From Candidatus Parcubacteria bacterium (GTDB lineage Bacteria; Patescibacteriota; Minisyncoccia; Sungbacterales; SURF-37), in NCBI GenBank assembly GCA_003599755.1, contig QZJO01000013.1, positions 27,729-91,728 on the forward strand: a DNA stretch of 64,000 nucleotides, given 5' to 3'. Both the position numbers and the translations under genes were made by a program. The notes under the pieces are model-generated. The model ran no database searches and was not told where the DNA came from. It saw only the letters and a program-made list of their open reading frames with translations. Below are positions 252-48,529 of the stretch, piece by piece; positions within the stretch are counted from its first letter, which is position 1; the number at the start of each line of letters is the position of its first letter.

Positions 252-2162
252 ATGGCCGGACTCGACAAACTCCGCGAAGCAATCTATTCCCGCGATTTCA
301 AGGAGCCGACGCGCTCGCCGGAAGGCGAGCTGCCGCCTGAAGCGCTGCAGGAATCGGCAAAGCCCATACCGCGCTCCTGGACGGAACGCCAGCCGAATGC
401 ATCCGCTCCGCTGGCGGCCGCAACGGGAAAACAGCGTCACTGGATCCGCAACGGCGTGATTATCGGCGTGGCTGCGATTTTAGTCGGCGGCGGCTGGCTC
501 GGGTATACGCTTTTTTTGGCGACCTCTGATGTGGGATTTTCGATCGAAGGGCCGAAAGAAGTTTCGGCCGGCGAACCGACCGTGTATACGATCCGCGTGA
601 CGAACCGTTCGAGCGTACCGCTCACCGAAGTATCCGCGACGCTGACATTTCCGCCCGGCACGATTACGCCCGACAGTATGGAAATTCCGTTTTCGGCCCC
701 GCGCATCCGCGTGCCGATCGGCGACGTTCCGGCGGGCGAACGCACGGAACGGGAAGTCCGGGTGCAGCTCGTAGGCCAGGCCGGCCACATGCATACGATT
801 GCGGGCCTTTTGTTGTACCGGCCGGAAAATATCTCATCACAGCTGACGCGCGAGACCGATATGACCACCACCATCGCGCGCGTACCCATCGCGGTCAGCG
901 TGGACGTACCCGAACGAATCAGCTCCGGCCAGGAGGTGAAGATGATCATTGCCGTGGACTCAGAATTATCAGTCGTGCTGCCGAACATGTCGCTTGGCGT
1001 CGAATTTCCCGCGGGGTTCGTGTTCGATCGCGCGGAACCCGATCCGATCGCGCCGAATAAACCCATTTGGTCGCTCGGAGAGCTCGTCGGCGGCCAATCG
1101 CGCACCATTACGGTCTTCGGGACGCTTGCCGGCGAGCCGGAAGAAGCGAAGCCCTTCCGCATGCGCGTTGGTCAATATGAAGCGGCGAATGATCGGTGGC
1201 TTGCGGTCATTGAGCATACGCAAACGCCATTGATCGCGTCGCCGTTTTTGCTCGCGCAGGCCACGCTTAATGGCGCCCGCGGCGGCGCGCTGCAACCGGG
1301 CACGCGCGTGACCGGTAGCGTATTTTATCGGAATAATTTGCCCGATCGCGTCGAGAATCTTACGGTTTCGGCTTCGTTCCCGGAGAATCTCGTGGATTTG
1401 CGCTCGGTTCGGGCCGAACGCGGCTTTTACGATGTCGGAAAGAAATCGCTGGTTTGGAATCCGAGTTCGGAATCCCGGCTGCGGGAGCTTGCCGCGGGCG
1501 GAGAGGGAACGCTCGCCTTTTCGTTCGAGCTTAAGCAGGCATTGCCGATCAATTCATTTGCAGACAAAAATTTTTTGTTCCCCGTCATCACGCTGATCGA
1601 TACAGCCAATCCGCCGCCGGCGTACCGGGGGATTGAGCTCGGCTCGGAGGACCGGATCGAATACCGGATGGCCTCGGTCCTTGGCCTGATCGGCCGCACG
1701 ACGTATTATGAATCTCCGTTCCCGAACACCGGCCCTCTGCCGCCCAAGGTGCGCGAGACGACTACCTATACGGTATTTTGGGAGCTGACCAGCGGCGGCA
1801 ATGATCTGCGGGATGTAGAGGTGCGCGGCGAACTGGCTGCGGGCGTCGAATGGCGGGATCAGGTGACGAGCGATTTGGGAACCGTTACGTTCAATCCCGC
1901 GACGCACGAAGTCATCTGGCGGATCCGCGATCTGCCGGCCGCAACCGGGGTGCTGCGCGCCCCGATCCGCGCCGCGATCCAGGTTGCCATTGCTCCCGCC
2001 GAGAACCAGATCGGTACCAGTCCGAATCTCTTGCAGAACGTGCGCGCGAGCGGCCGGGACCTTTTTGCCGACGTCACGCAGGACGTAACCGTTCCGAACG
2101 TATCCACGGAATTGAAGAGCGACAGCCAAAGCAAGCAAATCGAATGGCGAGTCGCGCCGTAA
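252..2162 (+). CDS. Large membrane-anchored protein with repeated beta-rich (DUF11/CARDB-like) domains; hypothetical surface protein
   Basis: ATG at 252 (MAGLDKLREAIYS) directly after the upstream stop. Single N-terminal TM helix (IIGVAAILVGGGWLGYTLFLA) followed by about 550 aa of repetitive 'GEPTVYTIRVTNRSSVPLTEV'-type segments. ORF track 81..2162, trimmed to the first plausible ATG. Confidence 0.55.
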   Translation: MAGLDKLREAIYSRDFKEPTRSPEGELPPEALQESAKPIPRSWTERQPNASAPLAAATGKQRHWIRNGVIIGVAAILVGGGWLGYTLFLATSDVGFSIEGPKEVSAGEPTVYTIRVTNRSSVPLTEVSATLTFPPGTITPDSMEIPFSAPRIRVPIGDVPAGERTEREVRVQLVGQAGHMHTIAGLLLYRPENISSQLTRETDMTTTIARVPIAVSVDVPERISSGQEVKMIIAVDSELSVVLPNMSLGVEFPAGFVFDRAEPDPIAPNKPIWSLGELVGGQSRTITVFGTLAGEPEEAKPFRMRVGQYEAANDRWLAVIEHTQTPLIASPFLLAQATLNGARGGALQPGTRVTGSVFYRNNLPDRVENLTVSASFPENLVDLRSVRAERGFYDVGKKSLVWNPSSESRLRELAAGGEGTLAFSFELKQALPINSFADKNFLFPVITLIDTANPPPAYRGIELGSEDRIEYRMASVLGLIGRTTYYESPFPNTGPLPPKVRETTTYTVFWELTSGGNDLRDVEVRGELAAGVEWRDQVTSDLGTVTFNPATHEVIWRIRDLPAATGVLRAPIRAAIQVAIAPAENQIGTSPNLLQNVRASGRDLFADVTQDVTVPNVSTELKSDSQSKQIEWRVAP

Positions 2163-2173
2163 TCAAAACCAGC

Positions 2174-3505
<1,332 letters not shown>

Positions 3506-3520
3506 CCGACGTCCATCCCT

Positions 3521-4792
3521 ATGTTCAAGAAGGTAGCGCTCCCCAACGGTTTACGGATCCTGACCGCACCGATGCAGGGCACCAATACGGTGACCACATT
3601 TGTCATGTGCGGGACCGGCTCGGACCACGAGACCGAACCGCAAAGCGGCATATCGCATTTTTTAGAGCACATGTTTTTCAAAGGCACGACGAAGCGGCCG
3701 AACCACTTGGCGATCACCAAGGAGCTCGACCGCATGGGCTCGGCCTCGAACGCCTTTACGTGGCACGAAACTACGGGATACTACGTGAAGGCCGGCGCCA
3801 TCCATTTTGACCGGGCGATTGATCTTCTGGCCGACATCTACCGGAATTCCCGATTTCCCGAAGAAGAGATGGAAAAGGAAAAGCGGGTGATCATCGAGGA
3901 GCTGCATATGCGGCGGGAAATCCCCACGAGCTATATCTGGCGCCTGTGGGAAAAGACGTTGTACGGCGATTCGCCGGCCGGCCGCGAAGTCGGCGGCACC
4001 GAAGAAACGGTGCAGGCGATTCGGCGTGAGGACTTGGTTAAATACTTCGAAAGTCAGTACGTCGCGCCCAATACCGCAGTCGTAGTTGCGGGCAAAATCG
4101 ACGAGGACGCGGCCGTGCGGCGCGTGGCGGAATTATTCTCCGATATTCGCGCCGGCGCGCCGCATCCGGCGCCCGCGTTTGTGCCGCGGCAGGCCGCACC
4201 CATTCTCATGCCCGAGGCGCGGACGATCGACCAAACGCACACGGTCATCGGTTTCCGGGGGTATGACGCGTTCCATCCGCGGCGCTGGGCCGCCGAGATG
4301 CTCGCGATCGTGCTCGGAGGATCGTGGAGCTCGCGGATGTTCGTGCGCGTGCGCGAGGAGCTCGGGCTCGCGTACACGGTATCGTCGTCGAGTTCGAACT
4401 ATAAGAACCGCGGCTCGTTCGAGACATATGCGGGCGTGAGCCATCACAATCTCGCCAAGGCCATCGAGGCGATCCTGGCCGAATACCGCCGCGTTCGCGA
4501 AGAGCCGATCGCGGCCGAAGAGCTTGCCGATGCACGCGAATTCCTCAAAGGCCGGATGCTTATGGAATGGGAGACCTCCGAGGCGGTCGCGGATCATGCC
4601 GCGGGCGAAGAAATGCTGACCGGCGATCCGTTGACCATCGAGGAAGTATTTGCGAGGATCGATGCAATCAAGCCGGCGGATCTGGCCGACGTTGCCCGAG
4701 ACCTCTTCCGGCCCGACCGCCTCAATGTCGCGATTTTGGGTCCCGAACCGACGTTCGGGGATCCGCAAGCCCTCATCAACCGATTCGCCTGA
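3521..4792 (+). CDS. M16-family zinc peptidase (insulinase-like; HxxEH motif HFLEH)
   Basis: GISHFLEHMFFKGT... is the inverted zinc-binding motif of M16 peptidases. 423 aa. Confidence 0.8.
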   Translation: MFKKVALPNGLRILTAPMQGTNTVTTFVMCGTGSDHETEPQSGISHFLEHMFFKGTTKRPNHLAITKELDRMGSASNAFTWHETTGYYVKAGAIHFDRAIDLLADIYRNSRFPEEEMEKEKRVIIEELHMRREIPTSYIWRLWEKTLYGDSPAGREVGGTEETVQAIRREDLVKYFESQYVAPNTAVVVAGKIDEDAAVRRVAELFSDIRAGAPHPAPAFVPRQAAPILMPEARTIDQTHTVIGFRGYDAFHPRRWAAEMLAIVLGGSWSSRMFVRVREELGLAYTVSSSSSNYKNRGSFETYAGVSHHNLAKAIEAILAEYRRVREEPIAAEELADAREFLKGRMLMEWETSEAVADHAAGEEMLTGDPLTIEEVFARIDAIKPADLADVARDLFRPDRLNVAILGPEPTFGDPQALINRFA

Positions 4793-4795
4793 TTT

Positions 4796-5857
4796 ATGGC
4801 CCTCGAACGCATCTCCTTGGATATCTCGTATACTTCGTATATACGGGCCGTGATCGTCGTCGCGGTTACCGTCGCGCTGGTATATCTGTCGCAAATCATC
4901 GTGGCCCTCTTGTTCGCCATGGTCATCGCGTCGGGCATCGAGCCGGGCGTGCGCTGGTTTGCGCGCTACCGCGTGCCGCGCATTGCCGCGGTGCTCTTGA
5001 TCTACGTCATTGCCATTGCGGTTCTCGGCACCGCGCTCGCGCTGGTTTTGCCGCCGCTGGTCGATGAGTTCACGGCGTTTCTCGATGACTTTCCGCGTTA
5101 CCAGCGGGTCCTCCTCCAGGAGCTGCGCGCGTTTGAGGATCTGCCGTTCTACACGTATTTTTCGGAAAACGCGCAGCAGTTTATTTTGAACCCGCCGTTT
5201 GACCTGCGCACCGTCGGTTCAAGCGCCCTGGATCTTATCGTCGCGTTCTTCGGCGGCATCGGGTCCGCACTGATTCTCCTGGTGGTTTCGTTTTACCTGG
5301 CGAGCCAGGAGCGGGGGATCGAACAATTTCTGCGTCTGGTCACGCCCCTGCGGAGCGAGGAATATGTAATCGGGCTTTGGCAGCGCACGCAAACTAAACT
5401 CGGGCGATGGCTGCGCGGCCAACTCATCCTCGGTCTGATCATCGGCGTGCTCGTCTATTTCACGCTGATCATCCTCGGCGTTCCGTACGCATTCACGCTC
5501 GCGCTGTTGGCCGCGGTGTTGGAATTGGTGCCGATCATCGGCCCGATTCTGGCGGCGATCCCCGCGGTATTTTTCGGATTCCTCGATTCACCGGTCCGCG
5601 GCCTGGTGGTTGCGGCGGCATACGTGCTGATCCAGCAAATCGAGAGCCATTTGTTGGTTCCGCTCGTGATGCGTCAGGCCTTGGGCTTGAATCCGTTGAT
5701 CGTGATCATCGGGCTTTTGGCCGGCGCGAAACTGGGCGGTATCATCGGCATGTTTCTTGCCGTGCCGCTTGCTTCGGTGATTGCCGAATTCCTCGTGGAC
5801 ACGGATCGCAAGCGGCGCGAAGTGCTCGCGGATCCGCGCCTGACCGGCCAGGGATGA
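4796..5857 (+). CDS. AI-2E family transporter (PerM/YdiK-like, UPF0118)
   Basis: Polytopic membrane protein; the LxxxxxExxPxxG-type region 'LLAAVLELVPIIGPILAAIP' is typical of AI-2E permeases. Confidence 0.65.
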   Translation: MALERISLDISYTSYIRAVIVVAVTVALVYLSQIIVALLFAMVIASGIEPGVRWFARYRVPRIAAVLLIYVIAIAVLGTALALVLPPLVDEFTAFLDDFPRYQRVLLQELRAFEDLPFYTYFSENAQQFILNPPFDLRTVGSSALDLIVAFFGGIGSALILLVVSFYLASQERGIEQFLRLVTPLRSEEYVIGLWQRTQTKLGRWLRGQLILGLIIGVLVYFTLIILGVPYAFTLALLAAVLELVPIIGPILAAIPAVFFGFLDSPVRGLVVAAAYVLIQQIESHLLVPLVMRQALGLNPLIVIIGLLAGAKLGGIIGMFLAVPLASVIAEFLVDTDRKRREVLADPRLTGQG

Positions 5858-15142: not shown

Positions 15143-15690
15143 ACGCGTTCGATTTTTTCCTATTCGAATGGCTTAATGGACTCGTACTCCGCTGGCCGTG
15201 GTTCGATGCTGTGGTAATTCTTGCGGGCAAGAAACTGCCATACGGAGTAGGCATTGCGTTTGCGGTACTGTTTTTACTGCCGATTTTTCCTCGATTTCGG
15301 CAACGCGCATGGAAAAATTTGGAAATGTTTTTCGTGGCGCTCGGCGGAGCGATCATTGCGCGTCTCGTAGTGGCGGGGGCTATTCGTTACTTCTATGATC
15401 GACCCCGACCGTTTGAAGTAGTCGATAACGCGCGGCAGCTGATCGATCATGCGATTGGCGCCTCATTTCCATCGGGCCATGCGGTATTTTTCTTCGCGCT
15501 CGCGGCAGGAATCTGGCCGTATTACAAAAAAACGAGCGCGGCGTTTTTCGGAGCCGCAATGCTGGTTTCGATAGGCCGGATTATGGGCGGCGTGCATTGG
15601 CCCTCGGATATTATTGCAGGCGCCATACTCGGTATTGCGACGACCGGGCTCTTAGTTATGGCAACGCGACGCATCCGGTCCGAATCATGA
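15139..15690 (+). CDS. PAP2-superfamily membrane phosphatase (undecaprenyl-diphosphatase/PgpB-like)
   Basis: PAP2 motifs KxxxxxxRP (YDRPRPF), SFPSGH and GVHWPSD; multiple TM helices. Confidence 0.75.
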   Translation: MNAFDFFLFEWLNGLVLRWPWFDAVVILAGKKLPYGVGIAFAVLFLLPIFPRFRQRAWKNLEMFFVALGGAIIARLVVAGAIRYFYDRPRPFEVVDNARQLIDHAIGASFPSGHAVFFFALAAGIWPYYKKTSAAFFGAAMLVSIGRIMGGVHWPSDIIAGAILGIATTGLLVMATRRIRSES

Positions 15691-16961
15691 ATCTTGTTCC
15701 CGTTCCGGTACAGCCGCATGCGCGTTCGATACTCCGGCGATATCGGACGCTCAATCCGGGTTTATTTCGCCGTCTTCGCCGGGCGGGCGGGCGACTCACG
15801 GGGACTGCCGTATTGCATATCAGCGCCACGCCGCGCGGTGGCGGCGTGGCCGAAATACTCCAAAGCGAGGTTGCGCTCGAGCAGGGACTCGGCATGGACA
15901 GCCGGTGGTTGGTTATCCGCGCGCCGCGGAAATTTTTTGCCATCACGAAAAAAATTCATAACCTTCTGCAGGGAGCAGCGGGAAAGCTTACCGAGCAGGA
16001 AAAAGGATATTATCTTGCCGCAAACCGGGAGTTTGTCGCGGCGTTTGCTCGAGCCGCGCGCGGCGTTGAACGCGCGGTGGTGGTCGTGCATGATCCCCAG
16101 CCGCTTGCGATGATCGGCGGATTGCCGGCAGAAATTTCGACCGTACTGCGCCTGCATATTGATTTGGCGACGCCCGATCCCGCGACGCTCGAATTTTTCC
16201 GGCCGATGATCGACCGATACGACCGCGTCATCGTGAGCGAACGAGCGTACTTGGTTTCATTGCCGTGGCTGCGGCGCGCGAAAGCGCGCGTGATATTTCC
16301 TGCGATCGACCCGTTGTCCGAGAAGAACCGACCGATGTCCCGCCGTGCGGCCGAGCGTCTGCTGTTGGAATTCGGTATTGATTGTTCGCGGCCGCTCGTT
16401 ACGCAGGTCTCACGATTCGATCCTTGGAAAGACCCCATCGGTGTCGTTCAGGCGTACTATCGTGCAAAAAACGATATTCCGGATTTGCAATTGGCGCTTG
16501 CCGGCTTGCGTGTCGCGGTCGACGATCCGGAGGCAGAGGCCGTATTCCGGAAAGTGCGCAAGTTCGCGCGCGGCGATTCGGCAATTCATTTATTCGGGGA
16601 TCACGAGCAGCTCAAAACCGTTTCTGGTGACCGATTCGTCAGCGCGCTCTATACGGCAAGCGATGTCGTTATCCAAAAAAGCATTCGCGAAGGGTTTGGC
16701 CTGACGGTGGCCGAAGCACTGTGGAAAGGGAAGCCGGTCGTTGCCGGTATGACCATCGGCACCAAAGCGCAGATCCAAAATGGTAAAAACGGCCTGCTCG
16801 TCGCTTCGCCCGAGGAGGCGGCCTCAGCGATCATCAAACTTATGCGCGATCGCCGGCTTGCCGCGCGCCTCGGCGCGGCCGGCAAAAAATCCGTGCAGCA
16901 GCGGTTTTTGCTGCCGCGTCTCGCGCTCGATATGGCCAACGTCTTTGGAGAGTTGGTGTAG
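15687..16961 (+). CDS. GT4-family glycosyltransferase (trehalose-synthase/TreT-like, RFDPWKDPIGV motif)
   Basis: Start ATG 15687 overlaps the PAP2 stop (ATGA). SRFDPWKDP... and a C-terminal GT-B fold signature EGFGLTVAEALWKGKPVVA. Confidence 0.7.
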   Translation: MNLVPVPVQPHARSILRRYRTLNPGLFRRLRRAGGRLTGTAVLHISATPRGGGVAEILQSEVALEQGLGMDSRWLVIRAPRKFFAITKKIHNLLQGAAGKLTEQEKGYYLAANREFVAAFARAARGVERAVVVVHDPQPLAMIGGLPAEISTVLRLHIDLATPDPATLEFFRPMIDRYDRVIVSERAYLVSLPWLRRAKARVIFPAIDPLSEKNRPMSRRAAERLLLEFGIDCSRPLVTQVSRFDPWKDPIGVVQAYYRAKNDIPDLQLALAGLRVAVDDPEAEAVFRKVRKFARGDSAIHLFGDHEQLKTVSGDRFVSALYTASDVVIQKSIREGFGLTVAEALWKGKPVVAGMTIGTKAQIQNGKNGLLVASPEEAASAIIKLMRDRRLAARLGAAGKKSVQQRFLLPRLALDMANVFGELV

Positions 16962-16976
16962 CGATATTCGAAACTG

Positions 16977-17696
16977 CTACTGACGTAAGGCGAATGGGTT
17001 AAAGTTTGTTCCCTCGTCGTAGGTATCAAGACCTTCCTTACGCTTGATAATCTTAATTACTCTTTGGGTGATCGGGAGGACAATTATTTCCCAGGTTGTG
17101 GCGAAGACAACGGTTGTAATTGTAAGGGGGATAATCTCTTCTGCAGTAAACCAGCCAGCGAAATAAAAAGCGGTAAAGAATGCAATGGTATTGTCCACTG
17201 TTTGTCCAAAAAGTGTGGATAGGACGAGGCGCACACCTATAAATCTTCCTTGCGTCCAAAGCTTCATTTTTGCGACGACATAGGAGTTTGTTAGTTCTCC
17301 GGCAAAAAATGCAACAATAAATCCTAGAGCAATGATTGGTGCGGCCCGGAAGATTAGATTAAATGCCTCGTTGTACTCGAAACTAGGATTGGGTACAAAA
17401 CTATAAATTGAAGTAAGTGTTGCCGAAAGGAGCATACAGGCAAAGCCGGTCCACACGATTTTTCTAGTAACTCGGTAGCCGTACACTTCGGTAAAAATGT
17501 CGGCAAAGATATATACGAATGGATATGCTATTGCTCCCACGGAAAAAACGAGGCTGCCAATGTAAAAGGTTTTAAGTGAAGTAAAGGTGCCGACAAGCAA
17601 AACCGTGACCCATAACATTCCAAAAACTCCTAGCCATTTGTGTGGTTGTGCCGCCGAAACAGCTGGGTCTGTGATGAGTTGTTTTTCTTGCTTCAT
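16977..17696 (-). CDS. Queuosine-precursor (YhhQ/DUF165, VUT family) transporter-like membrane protein; conspicuously low-GC gene
   Basis: 239-aa polytopic membrane protein (…YPFVYIFADIFTEVYGYR…LFGQTVDNTIAF…) typical of YhhQ. By eye the region is about 40-45% GC, against over 60% for its neighbours. Confidence 0.65.
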   Translation of the reverse strand: MKQEKQLITDPAVSAAQPHKWLGVFGMLWVTVLLVGTFTSLKTFYIGSLVFSVGAIAYPFVYIFADIFTEVYGYRVTRKIVWTGFACMLLSATLTSIYSFVPNPSFEYNEAFNLIFRAAPIIALGFIVAFFAGELTNSYVVAKMKLWTQGRFIGVRLVLSTLFGQTVDNTIAFFTAFYFAGWFTAEEIIPLTITTVVFATTWEIIVLPITQRVIKIIKRKEGLDTYDEGTNFNPFALRQ

Positions 17697-17767
17697 ATGG
17701 GTAAGAAATTTCTTCCCAAAATGCAGGCCGCCAATTCATTTTATCCAAACTCGTTGATTTTTCTACT

Positions 17768-17826
17768 TGGTGCCGAGGGATGGAGTTGAACCCTCACGCC
17801 CTTGCGAGCAACGGATTTTGAGTCCG
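17768..17826 (-). pseudogene. tRNA-Leu(CAA)-like 3' fragment (anticodon arm through CCA); no 5' acceptor strand or D-arm
   Basis: Minus-strand sequence ACGGA-CTCAAAA-TCCGT (anticodon CAA), a long variable arm, GAGGG-TTCAACT-CCATC T-arm (one G.A mismatch), acceptor 3' strand CCTCGGC and an encoded CCA. Only 23 nt lie between it and the intact tRNA, too few for a D-arm and 5' acceptor, and no GCCGAGG partner is present. Confidence 0.5.
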
Positions 17827-17850
17827 TTGTGCCCCGAACTAAATTTTCTG

Positions 17851-17934
17851 TGCCGCGGGAGAGAGTCGAACTCTCATGAGGTTGCCCTCGCTGGATTTTG
17901 AGTCCAGTGCGTCTGCCAGTTCCGCCACCGCGGC
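17851..17934 (-). tRNA. tRNA-Leu (anticodon CAA), type II with long variable arm, 84 nt, CCA not encoded
   Basis: Hand fold: acceptor GCCGCGG/CCGCGGC (perfect), D-arm GCGG-AACTGGCAG-ACGC, anticodon arm CTGGA-CTCAAAA-TCCAG, variable arm CGAGGGCAACCTCATG, T-arm GAGAG-TTCGACT-CTCTC, discriminator A. Confidence 0.8.
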
Positions 17935-17943
17935 GCACGGCTC

Positions 17944-17971
17944 ATTCTATCGCTTTTTCCAGCTTTTGCAA
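17944..17971 (-). promoter_or_regulatory. Putative sigma70-type promoter for tRNA-Leu (TTGCAA-N16-TAGAAT)
   Basis: On the minus strand: -35 TTGCAA (+17966..17971), 16-nt spacer, -10 TAGAAT (+17944..17949), about 9 nt upstream of the tRNA 5' end. Confidence 0.4.
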
Positions 17972-18028
17972 TAAGAAGCGCCCCGCCGCGTTCTGACTTC
18001 GAACACGACGGGGCGATATAACGGCGGG

Positions 18029-19861
18029 CTATTCCGTCGTCACGGACTTGGCGAGATTCCGAGGCTTGTCGACATTGATGCCGCGGGACACGCCCATCCA
18101 GTAGGCGAACAATTGCAGCGGAATTGCGGTCAGAACCGGCATGAGGAACTCGTCGTCTTCCGGCACGGTGATCGTCGCGTCGGCAAGCGAAGCGATTTCA
18201 CTATCGTCCGGATTTGCGATGGCAATGACCGGTCCGCGGCGCGCCTTGATCTCCTGGATGTTCGCGACCATCTTTTTGCGGCGGGAGTCGCGTACGGCGA
18301 TCGCGATCGTGGGAAACCGGTCATCAACGAGGGCAAGCGGCCCGTGTTTCATCTCGCCAGCCGAATAGCCCTCGGCATGCGCATAGGAAACCTCCTTCAG
18401 CTTGAGCGCACCTTCGAGCGCGACGGGGTACTGATATCCGCGGCCGATGAAAAGGCAACTCTGCATCCAGCCGAACTGTTCAGCGACCGCTCGAACGTGG
18501 TCGCTTTGCGCGAGCGCCGTGGTGATCTTATCGGGTAACCGGAGGACGGCTTCGAGCATGCGCTCCGCGTCTGTCCGGATCAGATCACGCTGGCGGCCCA
18601 GGTGGATCGCCAGGAGCGCGAGCAGGGTGACCTGGGAAACGAAGGCCTTGGTACTCGCGACCGATGTCTCGGGGCCGATATGGTTGTAGATACCTGCATC
18701 GGTCAGACGCGCGATGGCCGAACCGACGCGGTTGACGATGCCGAGCGTGAGAATGCCGCGGTCCTTGCCGCCTTTGATGGCGAGCAGCGTGTCCATCGTT
18801 TCGCCGGACTGGCTGATAGCGAGCATCGCGCTGTTGCGCCGCGATGATGTACGGCGGTATTCGTATTCGGACGCCAGCACTGCTGTAGCAGAAAGACCAG
18901 CGTAGGCCTCGATGTACATGGCACCGATGAGTGCGGCATGGTAGGCCGTGCCGCATCCGACGACGGTGAGGTCCTCGATCGCAGAGAGCTGTTTTTCGAC
19001 GGCGGCGAGGCCGCCGAACCGCACGTGGCCTTCTCTCGCGATGATGCGGCCGCGTAACGAGTTGGACAGAGCCGCCGGTTGCTCATTGATCTCGAAGAGC
19101 ATCCGATGCGGAAACCCGCCGAACTCCGCGCTCTCGGCCTCGAGCTCGATCGCTTGCGATGGGCGCATGCGAGTCACCGCGCCCGCGTCAACGATCATAT
19201 GGCTGGTCGGCGAAAGTGTGGCGATGTCGTAGTCCTCGAGATGTACCACTTCGCGGGTATGGATGGCCATGGCCGCCGCGTCGGATGCGATAAGGCGGGC
19301 ATCGGGCAGAATGCCGATGGCGAGCGGGCTCGAACGGCGGCTGGCGACGATAACGCCGGGTTCGTCGGCCGTGATGGCAACGAGCGCAAAGGTGCCTTCG
19401 ATCTGGTGGATGGCGGCACGCATGGCCTCGGCGAGATTACCGCGATACTCCATCTCCAAAAGATGCGCCACTACTTCGGTGTCGGTCTCGGAGGTGAAGC
19501 GATGACCGGCCGCCGTTAGCACGCGGCGCAGTGCATCGTGGTTCTCGATGGTGCCGTTATGGACGACAGCGAAACGCGTGTCGCAGCCGGTGTGTGGGTG
19601 CGTGTTCCGTTCGCTCGGCGCGCCATGGGTAGCCCAGCGGGTATGCCAGATACCGACAGAACTGACCAGAGTATGTCCGGACACTGCATCACGGAGCGCG
19701 TTGATGTCGCCCACGGATCGGATGATGGTCAACTCGGCGCTGTTTTGGAGTGCAAAGCCGGCTGAATCGTATCCGCGGTACTCGAGACGACGAATGCCTG
19801 CCATGCCCCAGGGCACGATGTTGGTATTCGGAACAGCCGTAATGCCGTAGATTCCGCACAT
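18029..19861 (-). CDS. glmS: Glutamine--fructose-6-phosphate aminotransferase
   Basis: MCGIYGITAV... (N-terminal catalytic Cys) and SIS-domain motifs. 610 aa, ending ...VDKPRNLAKSVTTE. Confidence 0.9.
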   Translation of the reverse strand: MCGIYGITAVPNTNIVPWGMAGIRRLEYRGYDSAGFALQNSAELTIIRSVGDINALRDAVSGHTLVSSVGIWHTRWATHGAPSERNTHPHTGCDTRFAVVHNGTIENHDALRRVLTAAGHRFTSETDTEVVAHLLEMEYRGNLAEAMRAAIHQIEGTFALVAITADEPGVIVASRRSSPLAIGILPDARLIASDAAAMAIHTREVVHLEDYDIATLSPTSHMIVDAGAVTRMRPSQAIELEAESAEFGGFPHRMLFEINEQPAALSNSLRGRIIAREGHVRFGGLAAVEKQLSAIEDLTVVGCGTAYHAALIGAMYIEAYAGLSATAVLASEYEYRRTSSRRNSAMLAISQSGETMDTLLAIKGGKDRGILTLGIVNRVGSAIARLTDAGIYNHIGPETSVASTKAFVSQVTLLALLAIHLGRQRDLIRTDAERMLEAVLRLPDKITTALAQSDHVRAVAEQFGWMQSCLFIGRGYQYPVALEGALKLKEVSYAHAEGYSAGEMKHGPLALVDDRFPTIAIAVRDSRRKKMVANIQEIKARRGPVIAIANPDDSEIASLADATITVPEDDEFLMPVLTAIPLQLFAYWMGVSRGINVDKPRNLAKSVTTE

Positions 19862-20010: not shown

Positions 20011-20772
20011 ATGGCAACCGTCATCGCATTCTGTAATCAAAAAGGAGGTACGGGAAAGACCACGACGGCCGTGAATGTCGCAAGCTATCTTGTGGCGCTC
20101 GGCAAGCGGGTGCTTGTCGTGGATATCGATCCCCAGGCAAACGCGACTTCGGGCATCGGCGTGCAGGCGGGCGAGCGGCATCTGTACCATGGCCTCGTGC
20201 GGGATGCGCATCCGGATGAATTGATCCGCCATTCCGGCCTGATGAATCTCCATGTGTTGCCGGGGCATCCGGACTTGGCCGCCGCGACCGTGGAGCTCGT
20301 ACCGATGGAGAACCGCGAATACCGGCTGCGCGATCTCTTGCGCCGCGTCGGCCGCCGCTACGATTTTATTCTCATCGATCCGCCGCCGACGCTCGATCTT
20401 CTGACCATCAACGCGTTGACGGCGGCCGATCAGGTGATCATCCCGGTACAGTGCGAGTACTACGCGCTCGAGGGGCTGGCGCGCCTGATGCATACGATCA
20501 ATCTTGTCAATCAGAATTTGAAAATGAAAGTGCGGACCATGGGCGCATTGCTGACGATGTTTGATCGCACAAGCCGGCTGCACCGCGCGGTCGCGCGGGA
20601 CGTGCGCAAAAAGTTTCCCGGCTATGTATTTGATGCCGTTATCCCGAGGAACGTTAGCTTGGCCGAGGCGCCGAGCTTCGGCAAAACGATCCTCCAGTAC
20701 GATCCCTATTCGCACGGCGCGAAGGCCTACCGAAAATTGGCGCAGGAAATTGTTAAGATCGAAAAAGAATGA
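20011..20772 (+). CDS. parA: Chromosome-partitioning ATPase ParA/Soj
   Basis: MATVIAFCNQKGGTGKTTTAVNVASYLV (deviant Walker A). Start at ATG 20011. A TGgTACAAT extended -10 lies only 4 nt upstream, so the mRNA is possibly leaderless. Confidence 0.85.
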   Translation: MATVIAFCNQKGGTGKTTTAVNVASYLVALGKRVLVVDIDPQANATSGIGVQAGERHLYHGLVRDAHPDELIRHSGLMNLHVLPGHPDLAAATVELVPMENREYRLRDLLRRVGRRYDFILIDPPPTLDLLTINALTAADQVIIPVQCEYYALEGLARLMHTINLVNQNLKMKVRTMGALLTMFDRTSRLHRAVARDVRKKFPGYVFDAVIPRNVSLAEAPSFGKTILQYDPYSHGAKAYRKLAQEIVKIEKE

Positions 20773-21230
20773 AGCGCATTGCCATTATTTTTATAGTCGT
20801 CGCTGTAATTTTTGGCTTATTTCTTTACAGTAGGCGCGAAAAGGAAGTTTCCGGGCGCGTTGTTGCGTGCGAAACCGGAGAGCCGATTGCTGGAGCTACA
20901 GTTTCAGCGCATCAGCACGGATGGGGGCTCTCGAATGGCATGCCCGTCTGGGATAAAGAATATACGACAACTGCGGTAAGCAGTTCTGATGGTTCATTTT
21001 CGCTTGCTTGGCGGGTCGGTAATGCGGCGCAATTGCGGGCTAAGCATGATAACTATATCGTTGCTGAATGGTGGGCAAAAGATACGGAAACGGTTTCTTT
21101 GCCATTGCGCCCCGGAACCGATCCGTTCCCATTGGCGGTAACATATAATTGCAAACTCGTTTCTGAATGCATGGTATGTGAAATGATAAACGGTGTTGAA
21201 ACGTGTCATAATTCGTGTCTGCCTCAATGA
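20769..21230 (+). CDS. Small low-GC membrane-anchored protein with a carboxypeptidase-regulatory-like beta domain and a Cys-rich C-terminus; inserted between parA and parB
   Basis: N-terminal TM (IAIIFIVVAVIFGLFLY), a GRVVACETGEPIAGATVSA motif (CarbopepD_reg-like) and a C-terminal CKLVSECMVCEMINGVETCHNSC. About 47% GC by eye. Start overlaps the parA stop (ATGA) and the end overlaps the parB start. Confidence 0.5.
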   Translation: MKRIAIIFIVVAVIFGLFLYSRREKEVSGRVVACETGEPIAGATVSAHQHGWGLSNGMPVWDKEYTTTAVSSSDGSFSLAWRVGNAAQLRAKHDNYIVAEWWAKDTETVSLPLRPGTDPFPLAVTYNCKLVSECMVCEMINGVETCHNSCLPQ

Positions 21231-24431: not shown

Positions 24432-25523
24432 TTATGCGACGCGTTGAAATCGGTTCTGTCCCATGCCGCGAACGTACCCTTTTAATTCCAACATGGAAAG
24501 GCAAGATATGACTGCCGCGGGCGGAAGTTCGGTCGTGCGGCAAAGCTCATCGACGCTCTGCGGCTCCGACAAGAGTTCCAATATGGTGCGCTGGGTCGCG
24601 TCCGTCAAGGCGCCGGCGCTCGATGGAGGCGCGGCGCGTTTGGAAATGCCGAGCGCGTCGACCAGTTCTTCGGCGCTTCGGAGTAGTGCGGCGCCTTCTT
24701 GAATCAGGCGGTTGTTGCCCGCACTCGCCGCGGAAAAGAGTGTGCCCGGAATCGCGAATACGTCGCGGCCCTGCTCAAGCGCGTAGTTGACGGTGATGAG
24801 CGTGCCCGAGCGCTCGGGCGCCTCGGCCACGACCACCACGCGTACCAGGCCGGCGATGAGACGGTTGCGCGCGCGGAAATGGTGTTTCAGCGGCCGGCTT
24901 GCGGGCGGATATTCGGAAATGACCGCGCCGCCTTTGCGAATTATCTGCTCCGCCATGTCCCAATGCTCGGCCGGATAGAACGACGTGCGATCCAAGCCGC
25001 CGCCCAATACGCCGACGGTTTCGATACTCGATTCGAGCGCGGCGCGATGCGCCGCGCCGTCAATGCCGCGCGCGAGGCCGCTGACAATCGCCACGTCGGC
25101 GATATCGGCAAGATCGCGCACGATTTTCCGCGTCGCTTCCAAGCCGTAAGGCGTTGCTTTGCGCGTGCCGATCACGGCGATGCGCGGCTTTCCGGGCGTA
25201 ATCCTTCCTTTTATATAGAGCGCGGCCGGCGGATGAGCCAGTTGCCGCAGTTCGTGCGGGAATTCATCATCTTCGGCCGCGACGAGCGCGATGCCAAAGC
25301 CCACGAGCTTGCGCAATTCCTCGTCCGGACGTACGCGGTCGCGGGCGCGCGCGATGTGGTTCGCGCGTTCGGCGTTTAAGCCGGCCTGTTCCAGCGCGGC
25401 GCTCGATGCGCGCCACGCGTTTTCATACGACGGAAACGCGGCGCGGAGTTTCTCGATCGTATCGAGCTCCGCTCCGGACTGCAGTATCGCATGCAGGAAT
25501 TTTTTTTCCTGTGCGGCTAACAT
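24432..25523 (-). CDS. dprA: DNA processing protein DprA (Smf)
   Basis: RIAVIGTRKATPYGLE...VSGLARGIDGAAHRAAL...AIPG (Rossmann-like DprA core), followed by a C-terminal winged-helix region. Confidence 0.85.
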   Translation of the reverse strand: MLAAQEKKFLHAILQSGAELDTIEKLRAAFPSYENAWRASSAALEQAGLNAERANHIARARDRVRPDEELRKLVGFGIALVAAEDDEFPHELRQLAHPPAALYIKGRITPGKPRIAVIGTRKATPYGLEATRKIVRDLADIADVAIVSGLARGIDGAAHRAALESSIETVGVLGGGLDRTSFYPAEHWDMAEQIIRKGGAVISEYPPASRPLKHHFRARNRLIAGLVRVVVVAEAPERSGTLITVNYALEQGRDVFAIPGTLFSAASAGNNRLIQEGAALLRSAEELVDALGISKRAAPPSSAGALTDATQRTILELLSEPQSVDELCRTTELPPAAVISCLSMLELKGYVRGMGQNRFQRVA

Positions 25524-45931: not shown

Positions 45932-45960
45932 TCGGGCTGCTGGGAATCGAACCCAGTCTA
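45932..45960 (-). pseudogene. tRNA 3' piece (variable loop, T-arm CTGGG-TTCGATT-CCCAG, acceptor 3' strand CAGCCCG, discriminator A) lacking any local 5' partner
   Basis: Hand fold. No sequence able to pair with CAGCCCG exists in the 100 nt upstream on the RNA. The only perfect partner (CGGGCTG) is 230 nt away at 46190..46196. Confidence 0.5.
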
Positions 45961-46085
45961 CGAGTTCCAGGGTGTAGTGTTGCGAGCGTATCCGCTGCGC
46001 GGATTCGTTCTCGCAACACCCGCGCAAACCAAAGACCTTTGCTTTGCGCCCCCTCGCCTCGCTTGCCCCGCACCAATTTCGGCAG

Positions 46086-46156
46086 TCGGGGCGCCGGGAA
46101 TCGAACCCGGTCTACAAGACCCCCAGCCTTGTGTACTGCCGTTATACTACGCCCCG
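46086..46156 (-). tRNA. tRNA-Pro (anticodon GGG), 71 nt, CCA not encoded
   Basis: Hand fold: acceptor CGGGGCG/CGCCCCG, D-arm GTAT-AACGGCA-GTAC, anticodon arm CAAGG-CTGGGGG-TCTTG (G37), variable TAGA, T-arm CCGGG-TTCGATT-CCCGG, discriminator A. Confidence 0.75.
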
Positions 46157-46170
46157 AAATTTGGTGCGGG

Positions 46171-46196
46171 GTGTACTGCCGTTATACTACAGCCCG
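46171..46196 (-). pseudogene. tRNA 5' piece (acceptor 5' strand CGGGCTG + complete D-arm, identical to the tRNA-Pro D-arm) with no contiguous anticodon or T-arm
   Basis: A 20-bp exact direct repeat of the tRNA-Pro D-arm region (GTGTACTGCCGTTATACTAC at 46131..46150 and 46171..46190). The acceptor CGGGCTG is perfectly complementary to CAGCCCG at 45932..45938. Confidence 0.5.
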
Positions 46197-46221
46197 TGTA
46201 TGCTGCTTGTGCCCCTCCGAT

Positions 46222-48202: not shown

Positions 48203-48529
48203 ATGGATCTTGGGATTCGCTCGAAACATAAGATTAGGCTTGGGCTTATTATAAGTTCGCTGGTATTTGGTTTTTTATTTACCGCCTTCGCGGGAATCGT
48301 GCTGTATGCATACACACTTACTAGTGTGTTTTCCGGCGGAGAACTTATGTGCTACGGATTTTTTAGTGATGGAAGTCCATGCTCATATGTAGATATCGTA
48401 GTGCGAGGTGCAGGATTTCTCCTGGGTGGCTTCCGCGATGCGGAGTCATGGATCATACCTTTGGTTTCTGCTGGCATTTTCTATATCGCGGTAGATAATA
48501 TTTCCCGTCTGAAAGCACGCGCCGTATAG
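48203..48529 (+). CDS. Small low-GC membrane protein (108 aa, 2-3 TM) inserted between rpsG and fusA
   Basis: Exactly fills the rpsG-fusA spacer (ends 1 nt before the fusA ATG). About 45% GC by eye, against over 60% in flanking genes. TM segments [25 protein letters not shown] and [14 protein letters not shown]. Confidence 0.45.

Follow-up and report, generated by a model that had tools for sequence, protein, structure and literature searches.

A 64,000-nt stretch of DNA from a Candidatus Parcubacteria bacterium (contig QZJO01000013.1), referred to below as the window, with positions counted from its first nucleotide and features on the minus strand unless stated otherwise, carries a laterally acquired yhhQ gene immediately downstream of two tRNA-Leu(CAA) sequences, one intact and resident, the other a degenerate pseudogene with an encoded CCA. 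The preferred interpretation, held at a probability of about 0.7, is that an 888-nt unit made up of the pseudo-tRNA-Leu-CCA, an AT-rich leader, and yhhQ came from a lower-GC member of the candidate phyla radiation (CPR), in which yhhQ is cargo recombining at tRNA 3' ends. In kind, the locus is a decayed, integrase-less, tRNA-associated islet, a feature of an already known type. An earlier note, made by a model from the sequence alone, had read it as the eroded remnant of recombination at a tRNA gene with a single cargo gene left behind, and this remains the best reading, the textbook version being found around yhhQ at two related loci, L024 and L038 (numbers with the prefix L denote loci compared with the window).

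The foreign character of yhhQ (16977..17696; 239 amino acids, intact) is evident in its composition. Its GC content is 43.2% and its GC at third codon positions (GC3) is 0.43, against averages of 60.1% and 0.67 for the other 62 open reading frames (ORFs) of the window, which makes it the lowest-GC ORF among the 63 (z = -4.2 for GC and -2.8 for GC3). The low-GC block spans 888 nt (16962..17849, 43.6% GC) between flanks of 59-61% GC, takes in the spacers and the leader along with the gene, and has sharp edges, one at the tRNA 3' end and the other at most 15 nt past the yhhQ stop codon. The left junction lies in or near an AT-rich spacer of 10 nt (17840..17849, 10% GC) that separates the resident tRNA from the pseudo-tRNA, that is, DNA of atypical composition begins no more than 10 nt from a tRNA; the right junction lies in the 15-nt gap (16962..16976) between the yhhQ stop and that of a convergent TreT-like gene. 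The earlier description of a low-GC, foreign-looking gene is thereby borne out, as a compositional island of about 0.89 kb.

Protein comparisons tell the same story. Among 713 YhhQ homologues found, the best are 87-90% identical to the window protein and belong to genomes named Uhrbacteria, Nomurabacteria, and other Patescibacteria, it being understood that organism names on metagenome-assembled genomes are imprecise; overall, the YhhQ proteins of other CPR lineages are 81-90% identical to that of the window. SecY groups the host with Candidatus Sungbacteria, its best non-self matches being 80% and then 75-77% identical. When L003 is set against the window, the ribosomal proteins L6, L18, S5, and L15 together with SecY are 45-53% identical and Adk is 36% identical, versus 81-82% for YhhQ. 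In addition, the gene neighborhoods of yhhQ differ in every close relative examined. Given that the best YhhQ matches fall within the CPR superphylum, the donor appears to have been another, lower-GC CPR bacterium and not a member of an outside phylum. Thus, the earlier expectation of best matches outside the host lineage holds with respect to the Sungbacteria-like lineage, but not with respect to the CPR superphylum. Across 26 loci, host GC ranges from 29% to 64% and yhhQ GC only from 32% to 49% (regression slope 0.30). The clearest parallel to the window is provided by L026, in which a yhhQ of 39% GC sits in a locus of 61% GC and the low-GC block comprises the leader and the gene only.

The encoded protein is a full-length member of the YhhQ/QPTR family, matching Pfam PF02592 (Vut_1) over profile positions 2-151 of 152 (1e-36, 127 bits, cut-off 27.2) and TIGR00697, 'queuosine precursor transporter', with 90.6 bits (cut-off 50.95), in keeping with the earlier assignment of a 720-bp YhhQ/DUF165-type transporter gene. 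The E. coli-type YhhQ equivalog NF008406 is reached with only 37.1 bits against a cut-off of 252, and by these profile scores the window protein is placed in the broader QPTR family only, outside the E. coli-type equivalog. YhhQ/QPTR (COG1738, Vut_1, TIGR00697) is the preQ0/preQ1 transporter of E. coli and other bacteria (PMC11130926). The window protein resembles it in its above-cut-off, full-length profile matches and differs from it in its membership of a CPR-specific clade, which has no more than 30-38% identity to the recovered homologues from outside the CPR, as well as in lacking a preQ1 riboswitch. Every invariant column of a family alignment with 40 clade members is kept, and identity to the nearest relatives is about 87% for amino acids versus about 76% for nucleotides, which indicates that yhhQ has been under purifying selection. 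The predicted role, most likely on these grounds, is the import of preQ0/preQ1-type queuosine precursors for tRNA modification. No tgt, queA, queF, or queG was found among the 19 of 63 window ORFs profiled. A preQ1 riboswitch in the leader was considered on account of the by-eye resemblance of a GAGGG...CCCTC hairpin (11-nt loop) with an A-rich tail to preQ1-I, and was rejected: no preQ1-I, -II, or -III aptamer is recognized in the yhhQ 5' leader, no riboswitch family is detected at E<=10 within 17600..18050, and the leader matches no other Rfam family either.

The leader itself (17697..17767, 71 nt from CCA to start codon, 36.6% GC) contains a promoter-like sequence, TAGAAA-16-TAAAAT, at 17738..17765, as judged by a promoter scan. 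No terminator was found between the resident tRNA-Leu and yhhQ in a scan for terminators and promoters, and because none intervenes, yhhQ is probably transcribed from the leader promoter, by read-through from the tRNA promoter, or both.

The two tRNA sequences upstream are of very different quality. The resident tRNA-Leu(CAA) (17850..17934), which had been described as intact and without an encoded CCA, is called by ARAGORN and scores 55.9 bits with the Rfam tRNA model (gathering score 29). It has what a functional type-II tRNA-Leu is expected to have, four arms plus a long variable arm, with all stems of the cloverleaf perfectly paired, a GC content of 63.5%, and a fold of -37 kcal/mol (z = -3.8); its 3' end reads ...GCGGCACAG, without CCA. 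The second sequence, the pseudo-tRNA (17768..17839), is not called by ARAGORN, and Rfam returns only a sub-threshold match to tRNA-Sec (20.6 bits, E=0.13, gathering score 47). It is, however, detected by a custom covariance model for type-II tRNA-Leu that was trained on the resident gene and four tRNA-Leu genes from other loci, five in all, with the fragment left out; in a search of the whole 64-kb window, for which E-values are rough, 17771..17839 scored 40.4 bits (E ~2e-9). The covariance check that the earlier note had proposed therefore succeeds with the custom model, Rfam remaining sub-threshold. The alignment runs end to end with 15 D-arm positions deleted. Read directly (17827..17768), the fragment consists of an anticodon arm ACGGA/CTCAAAA/TCCGT, a variable arm GCTC-GCAA-GGGC (TGCTCGCAAGGGCGTG), a T-arm GAGGG-TTCAACT-CCATC with a single G.A mismatch, and a 3' end formed by the acceptor strand CCTCGGC, the discriminator A, and CCA (17768..17770; GGCACCA ending at 17768). 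The anticodon and variable arms are intact, the acceptor and T-stems carry mismatches, and a decayed, mismatched acceptor 5' strand, GTTCGGG, is retained.

A local alignment of the pseudo-tRNA to the resident tRNA has z = 10, a score reached by none of 500 shuffles, whereas identity over the common 60 nt is 68%, and the variable arms differ. The only long stretch held in common is a 13-nt region of the anticodon loop, GGACTCAAAATCC, which is exact. CCA is encoded in the fragment and absent from the host tRNA-Leu and tRNA-Pro genes. Given the model match without a D-arm, the 68% identity, and the different variable arm, the fragment is a D-arm-less pseudogene of a different tRNA-Leu(CAA) and not a clean 3' half. 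Thus, the view that the second piece derives from a distinct, CCA-encoding tRNA-Leu(CAA) is upheld, while its delimitation has to be corrected: a 59-nt piece without D-arm and acceptor 5' strand had been described, of which the loss of the D-arm is right, but the acceptor 5' strand is present and the sequence extends about 12 nt further 5', so that it does not start cleanly at the anticodon stem. For annotation, this means that the pseudo-tRNA should not be labelled a gene and that yhhQ is to be flagged as horizontally acquired.

The association of yhhQ with tRNA genes extends well beyond the window. Loci were sampled from species-representative genomes (25) and metagenomes (80), supplemented by contig look-ups, and dereplicated at 95% nucleotide identity; a locus with at least 150 nt of upstream sequence was counted as tRNA-adjacent if a same-strand tRNA ends at most 400 nt before the yhhQ start. 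By this definition, about a quarter of the distinct CPR-clade yhhQ loci (12/51) are tRNA-adjacent, with 11 different anticodons, in contrast to 0/39 distant homologues of non-CPR type (30-38% identity; Fisher p = 9e-4), and the frequency also exceeds what the overall density of tRNA genes in these loci would lead one to expect (binomial p = 9e-13). The tRNAs concerned are Leu-CAA twice (in the window and in L021/L052, with no more than 32 nt separating tRNA and gene in the latter), Leu-GAG, Ser-GCT, Ser-GGA twice, Ser-ACT, Tyr-GTA, Gln-TTG, Arg-TCG, Arg-CCT, and Arg-TCT, so that eight of the 12 are of the kinds that have a long variable arm (Leu, Ser, and Tyr). Since 11 different anticodons are involved, the yhhQ-tRNA association would have been created many times.

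Half of the tRNA-adjacent loci (6/12) contain partial tRNA copies: the window, L024, L038, L044, L008, and L026. In L024, the last 24 nt of a tRNA-Ser are repeated (23/24) about 30 nt past the yhhQ stop, and between the repeats is an islet of about 0.8 kb in which there is only yhhQ and the remnant of an XRE gene. In L038, a 15-nt repeat of the tRNA-Tyr 3' end is found 1.07 kb past yhhQ, so that yhhQ and one ORF of unknown function are enclosed. Direct repeats of a tRNA 3' end thus flank the cargo at these two loci and not in the window. L044 has a 19-nt copy of a tRNA-Ser 3' end in a degenerate tRNA-like stretch between the intact tRNA and yhhQ, that is, in the same order (tRNA, partial copy, yhhQ) as in the window, and L008 also has a partial tRNA copy. 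In L026 (4680..5720, 61% GC host), yhhQ follows tRNA-Arg(CCT)-CCA by 47 nt and is apparently frameshifted into two ORFs, 4974..5501 and 5384..5662; here it is the promoter and the first 29 nt of the tRNA-Arg that are duplicated (28/29), 149 nt upstream, with two terminator-like hairpins between the copies.

L038 is linked to the window by its leader. The 71-nt leader of the window is similar to that of L038 with z = 9.6 against shuffles, as compared with z <= 2.3 for 23 other loci. The similarity begins directly after CCA, which in L038 belongs to an intact, CCA-encoding tRNA-Tyr, and its conserved blocks are GAAAAATCAA and AAAAnGAATTGGCGG..ATTTTG, L038 carrying an insert of 47 nt; in the window leader, the blocks of note are GAAAAATCAA and GAATTGGCGG. 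Because the similarity starts at CCA, the junction tRNA-CCA/leader/yhhQ is a common, inherited feature of the mobile unit. The L038 tRNA-Tyr beside yhhQ ends in ...GCGCACCA, of which the last two letters, CA, derive from the element, and both the distal tRNA-Tyr copy and the host tRNA-Trp lack CCA. The two loci differ in which tRNA has survived: L038 keeps an intact junction tRNA and a fragmented host copy, whereas the window keeps an intact host copy and has the pseudogene at the junction. This comparison, together with the AT-rich spacers on both sides, indicates that the pseudo-tRNA lies within the acquired unit.

The neighborhood of L038 (2440..4810) has further features of its own. A 5' remnant of tRNA-Tyr (2467..2520; tRNA positions 1-31, with a 23-nt hairpin in the D-loop) and a 3' remnant without CCA (4788..4802) frame a GIY-YIG ORF (2530..2778), the intact tRNA-Tyr-CCA, the leader, yhhQ, and the unknown ORF of 279 amino acids, and paralogous acyltransferase genes are located on both sides. 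The arrangement looks like an element that replaces the tRNA it disrupts. In L025, about 900..1030, upstream of yhhQ, a tRNA-like relic without an ARAGORN call has an acceptor GGAGAAT.../...ATTCTCC and a T-arm GTGAGGTTCGAAT...GAATCTCAC that is broken by an insertion of about 50 nt. Directly 5' of yhhQ, an XRE-family helix-turn-helix gene is complete in L007, while in L008 and L024 only its last codons are left, which suggests that yhhQ once travelled with a repressor-like XRE gene. A motif common to the window leader and the upstream regions of L024 and L008, CCAA-TAGAAAAAT, was discarded as a sign of relatedness: in L024 and L008 it is the C-terminal remnant of the XRE gene, and the upstream regions of these two loci have no significant homology to the window leader.

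On this basis, the formation of the locus may be envisaged as follows. Small elements that recombine at tRNA 3' ends would carry yhhQ from one CPR bacterium to another, either by a reaction of the tyrosine-integrase type, with the enzyme supplied in trans or since lost, or by a route guided by tRNA homology after DNA uptake, the host encoding DprA. The event at the window locus would have resulted in a tandem pair of cognate tRNA-Leu copies, of which the resident one kept its function and the cargo-attached one, being redundant, lost its D-arm and gained mismatches; all other DNA of the element would have disappeared. Of the two routes, an integrase acting in trans or since lost is favored by the direct repeats in L024 and L038 together with the integrase-linked att piece of L116. 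In the latter, a viral contig (IMGVR_UViG_2526164711_000001, 1084..2410), a distance of 165 nt separates a tyrosine integrase gene from a tRNA-Leu(CAA) piece, which extends from the anticodon stem to CCA, with no full tRNA according to ARAGORN; the layout is canonical and attP-like. The piece is 80% identical to the window fragment over 60 nt, a value biased upward in that the search pattern which led to the contig was itself based on the fragment. The tRNA association may also owe something to selection for expression from tRNA promoters and to a shortage of permissive gaps.

Viral contigs were also considered as a source of the gene itself. A scan of viral_contigs with YhhQ found no relative, and the contigs matched by the degenerate fragment pattern, two of them with a phage tRNA-Leu gene and one with an integrase and an unrelated att-like piece, carry no yhhQ, for which reason a phage origin was rejected.

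Three known systems invite comparison. Islands associated with tRNA genes, such as the P4-like and leuX-type islands, are produced by tyrosine integrases, with att sublocations at the anticodon loop, the T-loop, and the 3' end. The window locus resembles them in that DNA of foreign composition starts at a tRNA 3' end, a partial second tRNA is present, and a single adaptive gene is the cargo; the genuine 3'-end repeats around the same cargo in L024 and L038, and the integrase with a tRNA-Leu(CAA) att piece in L116, extend the resemblance. It departs from them in having neither integrase nor distal repeat, in measuring 0.89 kb in all with one gene, and in a partial copy that is proximal, 68% identical to the resident tRNA, and complete but for the D-arm, with a remnant of the acceptor 5' strand. 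The second system is homology-facilitated illegitimate recombination during natural transformation, in which a conserved gene serves as anchor. DprA, a marker of natural-transformation DNA processing, is encoded in the window at 24432..25523 (DNA_processg_A, 1.7e-71, plus a DprA winged-helix domain). This route requires no recombinase and would transfer a lone gene, and tRNA genes are among the few sequences similar enough across CPR lineages at about 50% protein identity; exchange through an anchor, however, should leave one hybrid tRNA and not a resident tRNA plus a pseudo-tRNA, and the 11 different anticodons beside the cargo are not explained by it. The third is that of free-standing GIY-YIG homing endonuclease genes in tRNA clusters, exemplified by SegB of phage T4. 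Small GIY-YIG ORFs adjoin tRNA and yhhQ in L038 and in the group L020/L049/L050, and the host tRNA-Tyr of L038 is split around a replacement tRNA plus yhhQ. As a general vehicle, a GIY-YIG endonuclease was nevertheless dismissed, there being none at the window locus and only two such cases (L038 and the L020 group) among the 12 tRNA-adjacent loci.

Several observations weigh against the proposed transfer of a tRNA-bearing unit from another CPR bacterium. No donor sequence was found, the nearest DNA identity being about 76%. Neither an integrase nor any other recombinase was found close to yhhQ, be it in the window or at any of the twelve tRNA-adjacent loci, including in phmmer searches with an integrase, and no significant tRNA-like repeat occurs distal to yhhQ in the window, where the longest exact match is 7 nt. 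The order resident tRNA, pseudo-tRNA, cargo would demand something more than one integration, such as a second event or tandem copies. The leaders of L038 and the window are homologous although their tRNAs differ (Tyr versus Leu), a switch for which the proposed transfer does not account. Finally, degenerate partial tRNA copies also surround a tRNA-Pro gene in the same window with no cargo, and such copies may therefore arise independently of yhhQ in the host genome.

Two candidates that might have filled these gaps were rejected. One was a distal attR at 16954..16972, TTCGAAT...CACCA, a weak motif resembling a tRNA 3' end, with a T-loop-like TTCGAAT in the 15-nt gap, that does not align significantly to the resident tRNA or the pseudo-tRNA. 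In the window, TTCGAAT-N4-16-CACCA is present two times where 0.11 would be expected, for a pattern defined post hoc, after the sequence had been seen. Given that its CACCA lies within the TreT-like gene, where it encodes the family-typical C-terminus ...ELV, the motif after the yhhQ stop is probably a coincidence. The other was the recombinase of L048 (2998..6708), where a Xer-like tyrosine recombinase gene (3862..4830) and a convergent glmS come after yhhQ, so that yhhQ is near glmS for a second time, although in an arrangement unlike that of the window; the recombinase is the only neighboring case, and its Xer-like architecture fits a housekeeping enzyme.

A bolder proposal, to be entertained only tentatively, is that yhhQ is the cargo of an undescribed family of integrase-less islets of 0.8-2 kb that spread across CPR classes and land at tRNA 3' ends; these would be mobilized in trans or via tRNA homology, and the window would be one decayed example. 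CPR bacteria have tiny genomes and depend on salvage. To our knowledge, recognizable mobile elements are rare among them, which is why gene gain in CPR is poorly understood. Against this background, a queuosine-precursor transporter appears to move between distant CPR lineages, to judge from ribosomal proteins of about 50% identity versus 81-90% for the transporter. Should the pattern hold, it would imply strong selection for queuosine salvage in CPR symbionts and would make tRNA 3' ends landing pads for the acquisition of single genes without resident integrases. No paper mentioning YhhQ together with Patescibacteria was found in the literature searched. That yhhQ is spread throughout the CPR and associated with tRNA genes is of moderate interest, and this broader pattern, movement across CPR classes to positions beside many tRNAs, is of more interest than the locus itself.

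Among the alternatives, the one that survives best, although still unlikely, involves two unrelated events: a native tandem duplicate of tRNA-Leu decayed, and yhhQ landed separately in a permissive gap, where it is expressed from the tRNA promoter. The cargo-free tRNA-Pro locus, with its 26-nt partial 5' copy (24/26) and tRNA-like piece, is what such a history would lead one to expect; the genome is very compact, with gaps of 15 nt here, so that few sites would tolerate an insertion, and between the tRNA and yhhQ there is no terminator. The position of yhhQ at the end of a ribosomal-protein operon in L003 likewise fits selection for strong upstream promoters. Two separate events would not account, however, for a CCA that is encoded in the fragment only, for the low-GC spacers that place the fragment within the foreign block, or for the homology to the L038 leader that starts exactly at CCA, and selection for expression alone would not yield the tRNA direct repeats of L024 and L038.

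Less probable again is a classic att duplication, in which the fragment would be the 3' part of the resident tRNA-Leu, generated by an integrase crossover in the anticodon loop, with the island since eroded. The exact 13-nt anticodon-loop core would suit such an event, integrase-bearing elements do carry pieces running from anticodon stem to CCA, as in L116, and true 3'-end direct repeats surround yhhQ in L024 and L038. The stems nevertheless speak against it: CTGGA/TCCAG in the resident tRNA and ACGGA/TCCGT in the fragment are each perfect but mutually incompatible, and the acceptor strands are incompatible as well. The products of an anticodon-loop crossover would be hybrids, so that such a crossover cannot have given rise to this pair, and each copy must therefore be a contiguous tRNA sequence of separate origin. 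The identity of only 68%, the acceptor 5' remnant, which shows that the fragment does not start at the anticodon stem, and the proximal position of the fragment between tRNA and cargo, with neither distal repeat nor integrase, point the same way. The earlier note had interpreted the partial copy as a footprint of integrase-mediated integration into a tRNA gene, and an att-type duplicate of the resident tRNA is not supported in view of the identity, the stems, and the missing repeat; its remark that the order is not that of the textbook and that an integrase is absent is correct, the fragment being proximal and the 888-nt block holding no recombinase gene, only yhhQ.

It is highly improbable that the tRNA-like piece acts in cis within the yhhQ transcript, for instance as a signal for RNase P or RNase Z or as a regulatory tRNA mimic. 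It does share the strand of yhhQ and of the tRNA promoter, between which it lies without an intervening terminator, and its anticodon and variable arms are intact, but the fragment alone folds no more stably than shuffled sequence (z = -0.5 to -2.0), its T-stem is mismatched and its D-arm absent, and neither a conserved counterpart 5' of yhhQ in about 50 related loci nor an Rfam family corresponds to it. Least credible of all is a native, vertically inherited yhhQ with a low GC content due to membrane-protein composition or another gene-specific constraint, since, although yhhQ has 32-49% GC in all hosts and lies below its flanks in most hosts above 45% GC, so that an intrinsic bias could contribute, GC3 is free of amino-acid constraint and is depressed as well (0.43 versus 0.67), YhhQ is 81% identical where ribosomal proteins and SecY of the same genome pair are 45-53% identical, the neighborhoods differ in all close relatives, and the AT-rich leader and spacers are low in GC, too.

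The acquired unit is set between two other genes. Downstream lies the convergent TreT-like glycosyltransferase gene (15597..16961, plus strand). Upstream, glmS (18029..19861, recognized by profile match) ends in a strong terminator hairpin (17979..18015), just past which, 10 nt 5' of the resident tRNA-Leu, a consensus scan places a promoter-like TTGCAA-16-TAGAAT (17944..17971); by this consensus match, it is inferred to drive the resident tRNA. GlmS has a best non-self match of only 55% identity among 5.8 billion proteins, whereas SecY has Sungbacteria relatives at 75-80%, and one GlmS homologue, P0124 (52%), adjoins GGDEF and PdxJ genes in a context that does not look CPR-like. Despite its host-like GC, glmS may itself be an older acquisition.

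The tRNA-Pro locus mentioned above also deserves description. tRNA-Pro(GGG) occupies 46085..46156 within the region 45932..46200, and 26 nt of its own 5' end (24/26) are copied upstream at about 46171..46196, followed by CCCGCACCA. The gene is bracketed by an inverted repeat of 14-15 nt, CCCCGCACCAAATTT / AAATTGGTGCGGGG. A tRNA-like piece 63 nt downstream (45932..46022) has a perfect T-arm and an acceptor-like stem, whereas its D and anticodon arms are replaced by a long hairpin; the tRNA-Leu model gives it 11.7 bits, and it matches no Rfam family. Degenerate tRNA copies are thus a recurrent companion of tRNA genes in the host genome. In a different part of the window, a 90-nt 'tRNA-Val(tac)' called by ARAGORN at 1397..1486 (plus strand) lies within an ORF of 693 codons, is not recovered by Rfam at the gathering threshold, and is probably a false positive.

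Two further ORFs on the plus strand stand out by composition. One, of 108 amino acids (48203..48529, 45% GC, GC3 0.41), has no Pfam match and sits between two ORFs that, to judge from their placement, may be rpsG and fusA. The other, of 153 amino acids (20769..21230, 48% GC, GC3 0.44), lies between parA and parB and has a weak match to CarboxypepD_reg, below the cut-off. Located within conserved gene pairs, both may be further small insertions.

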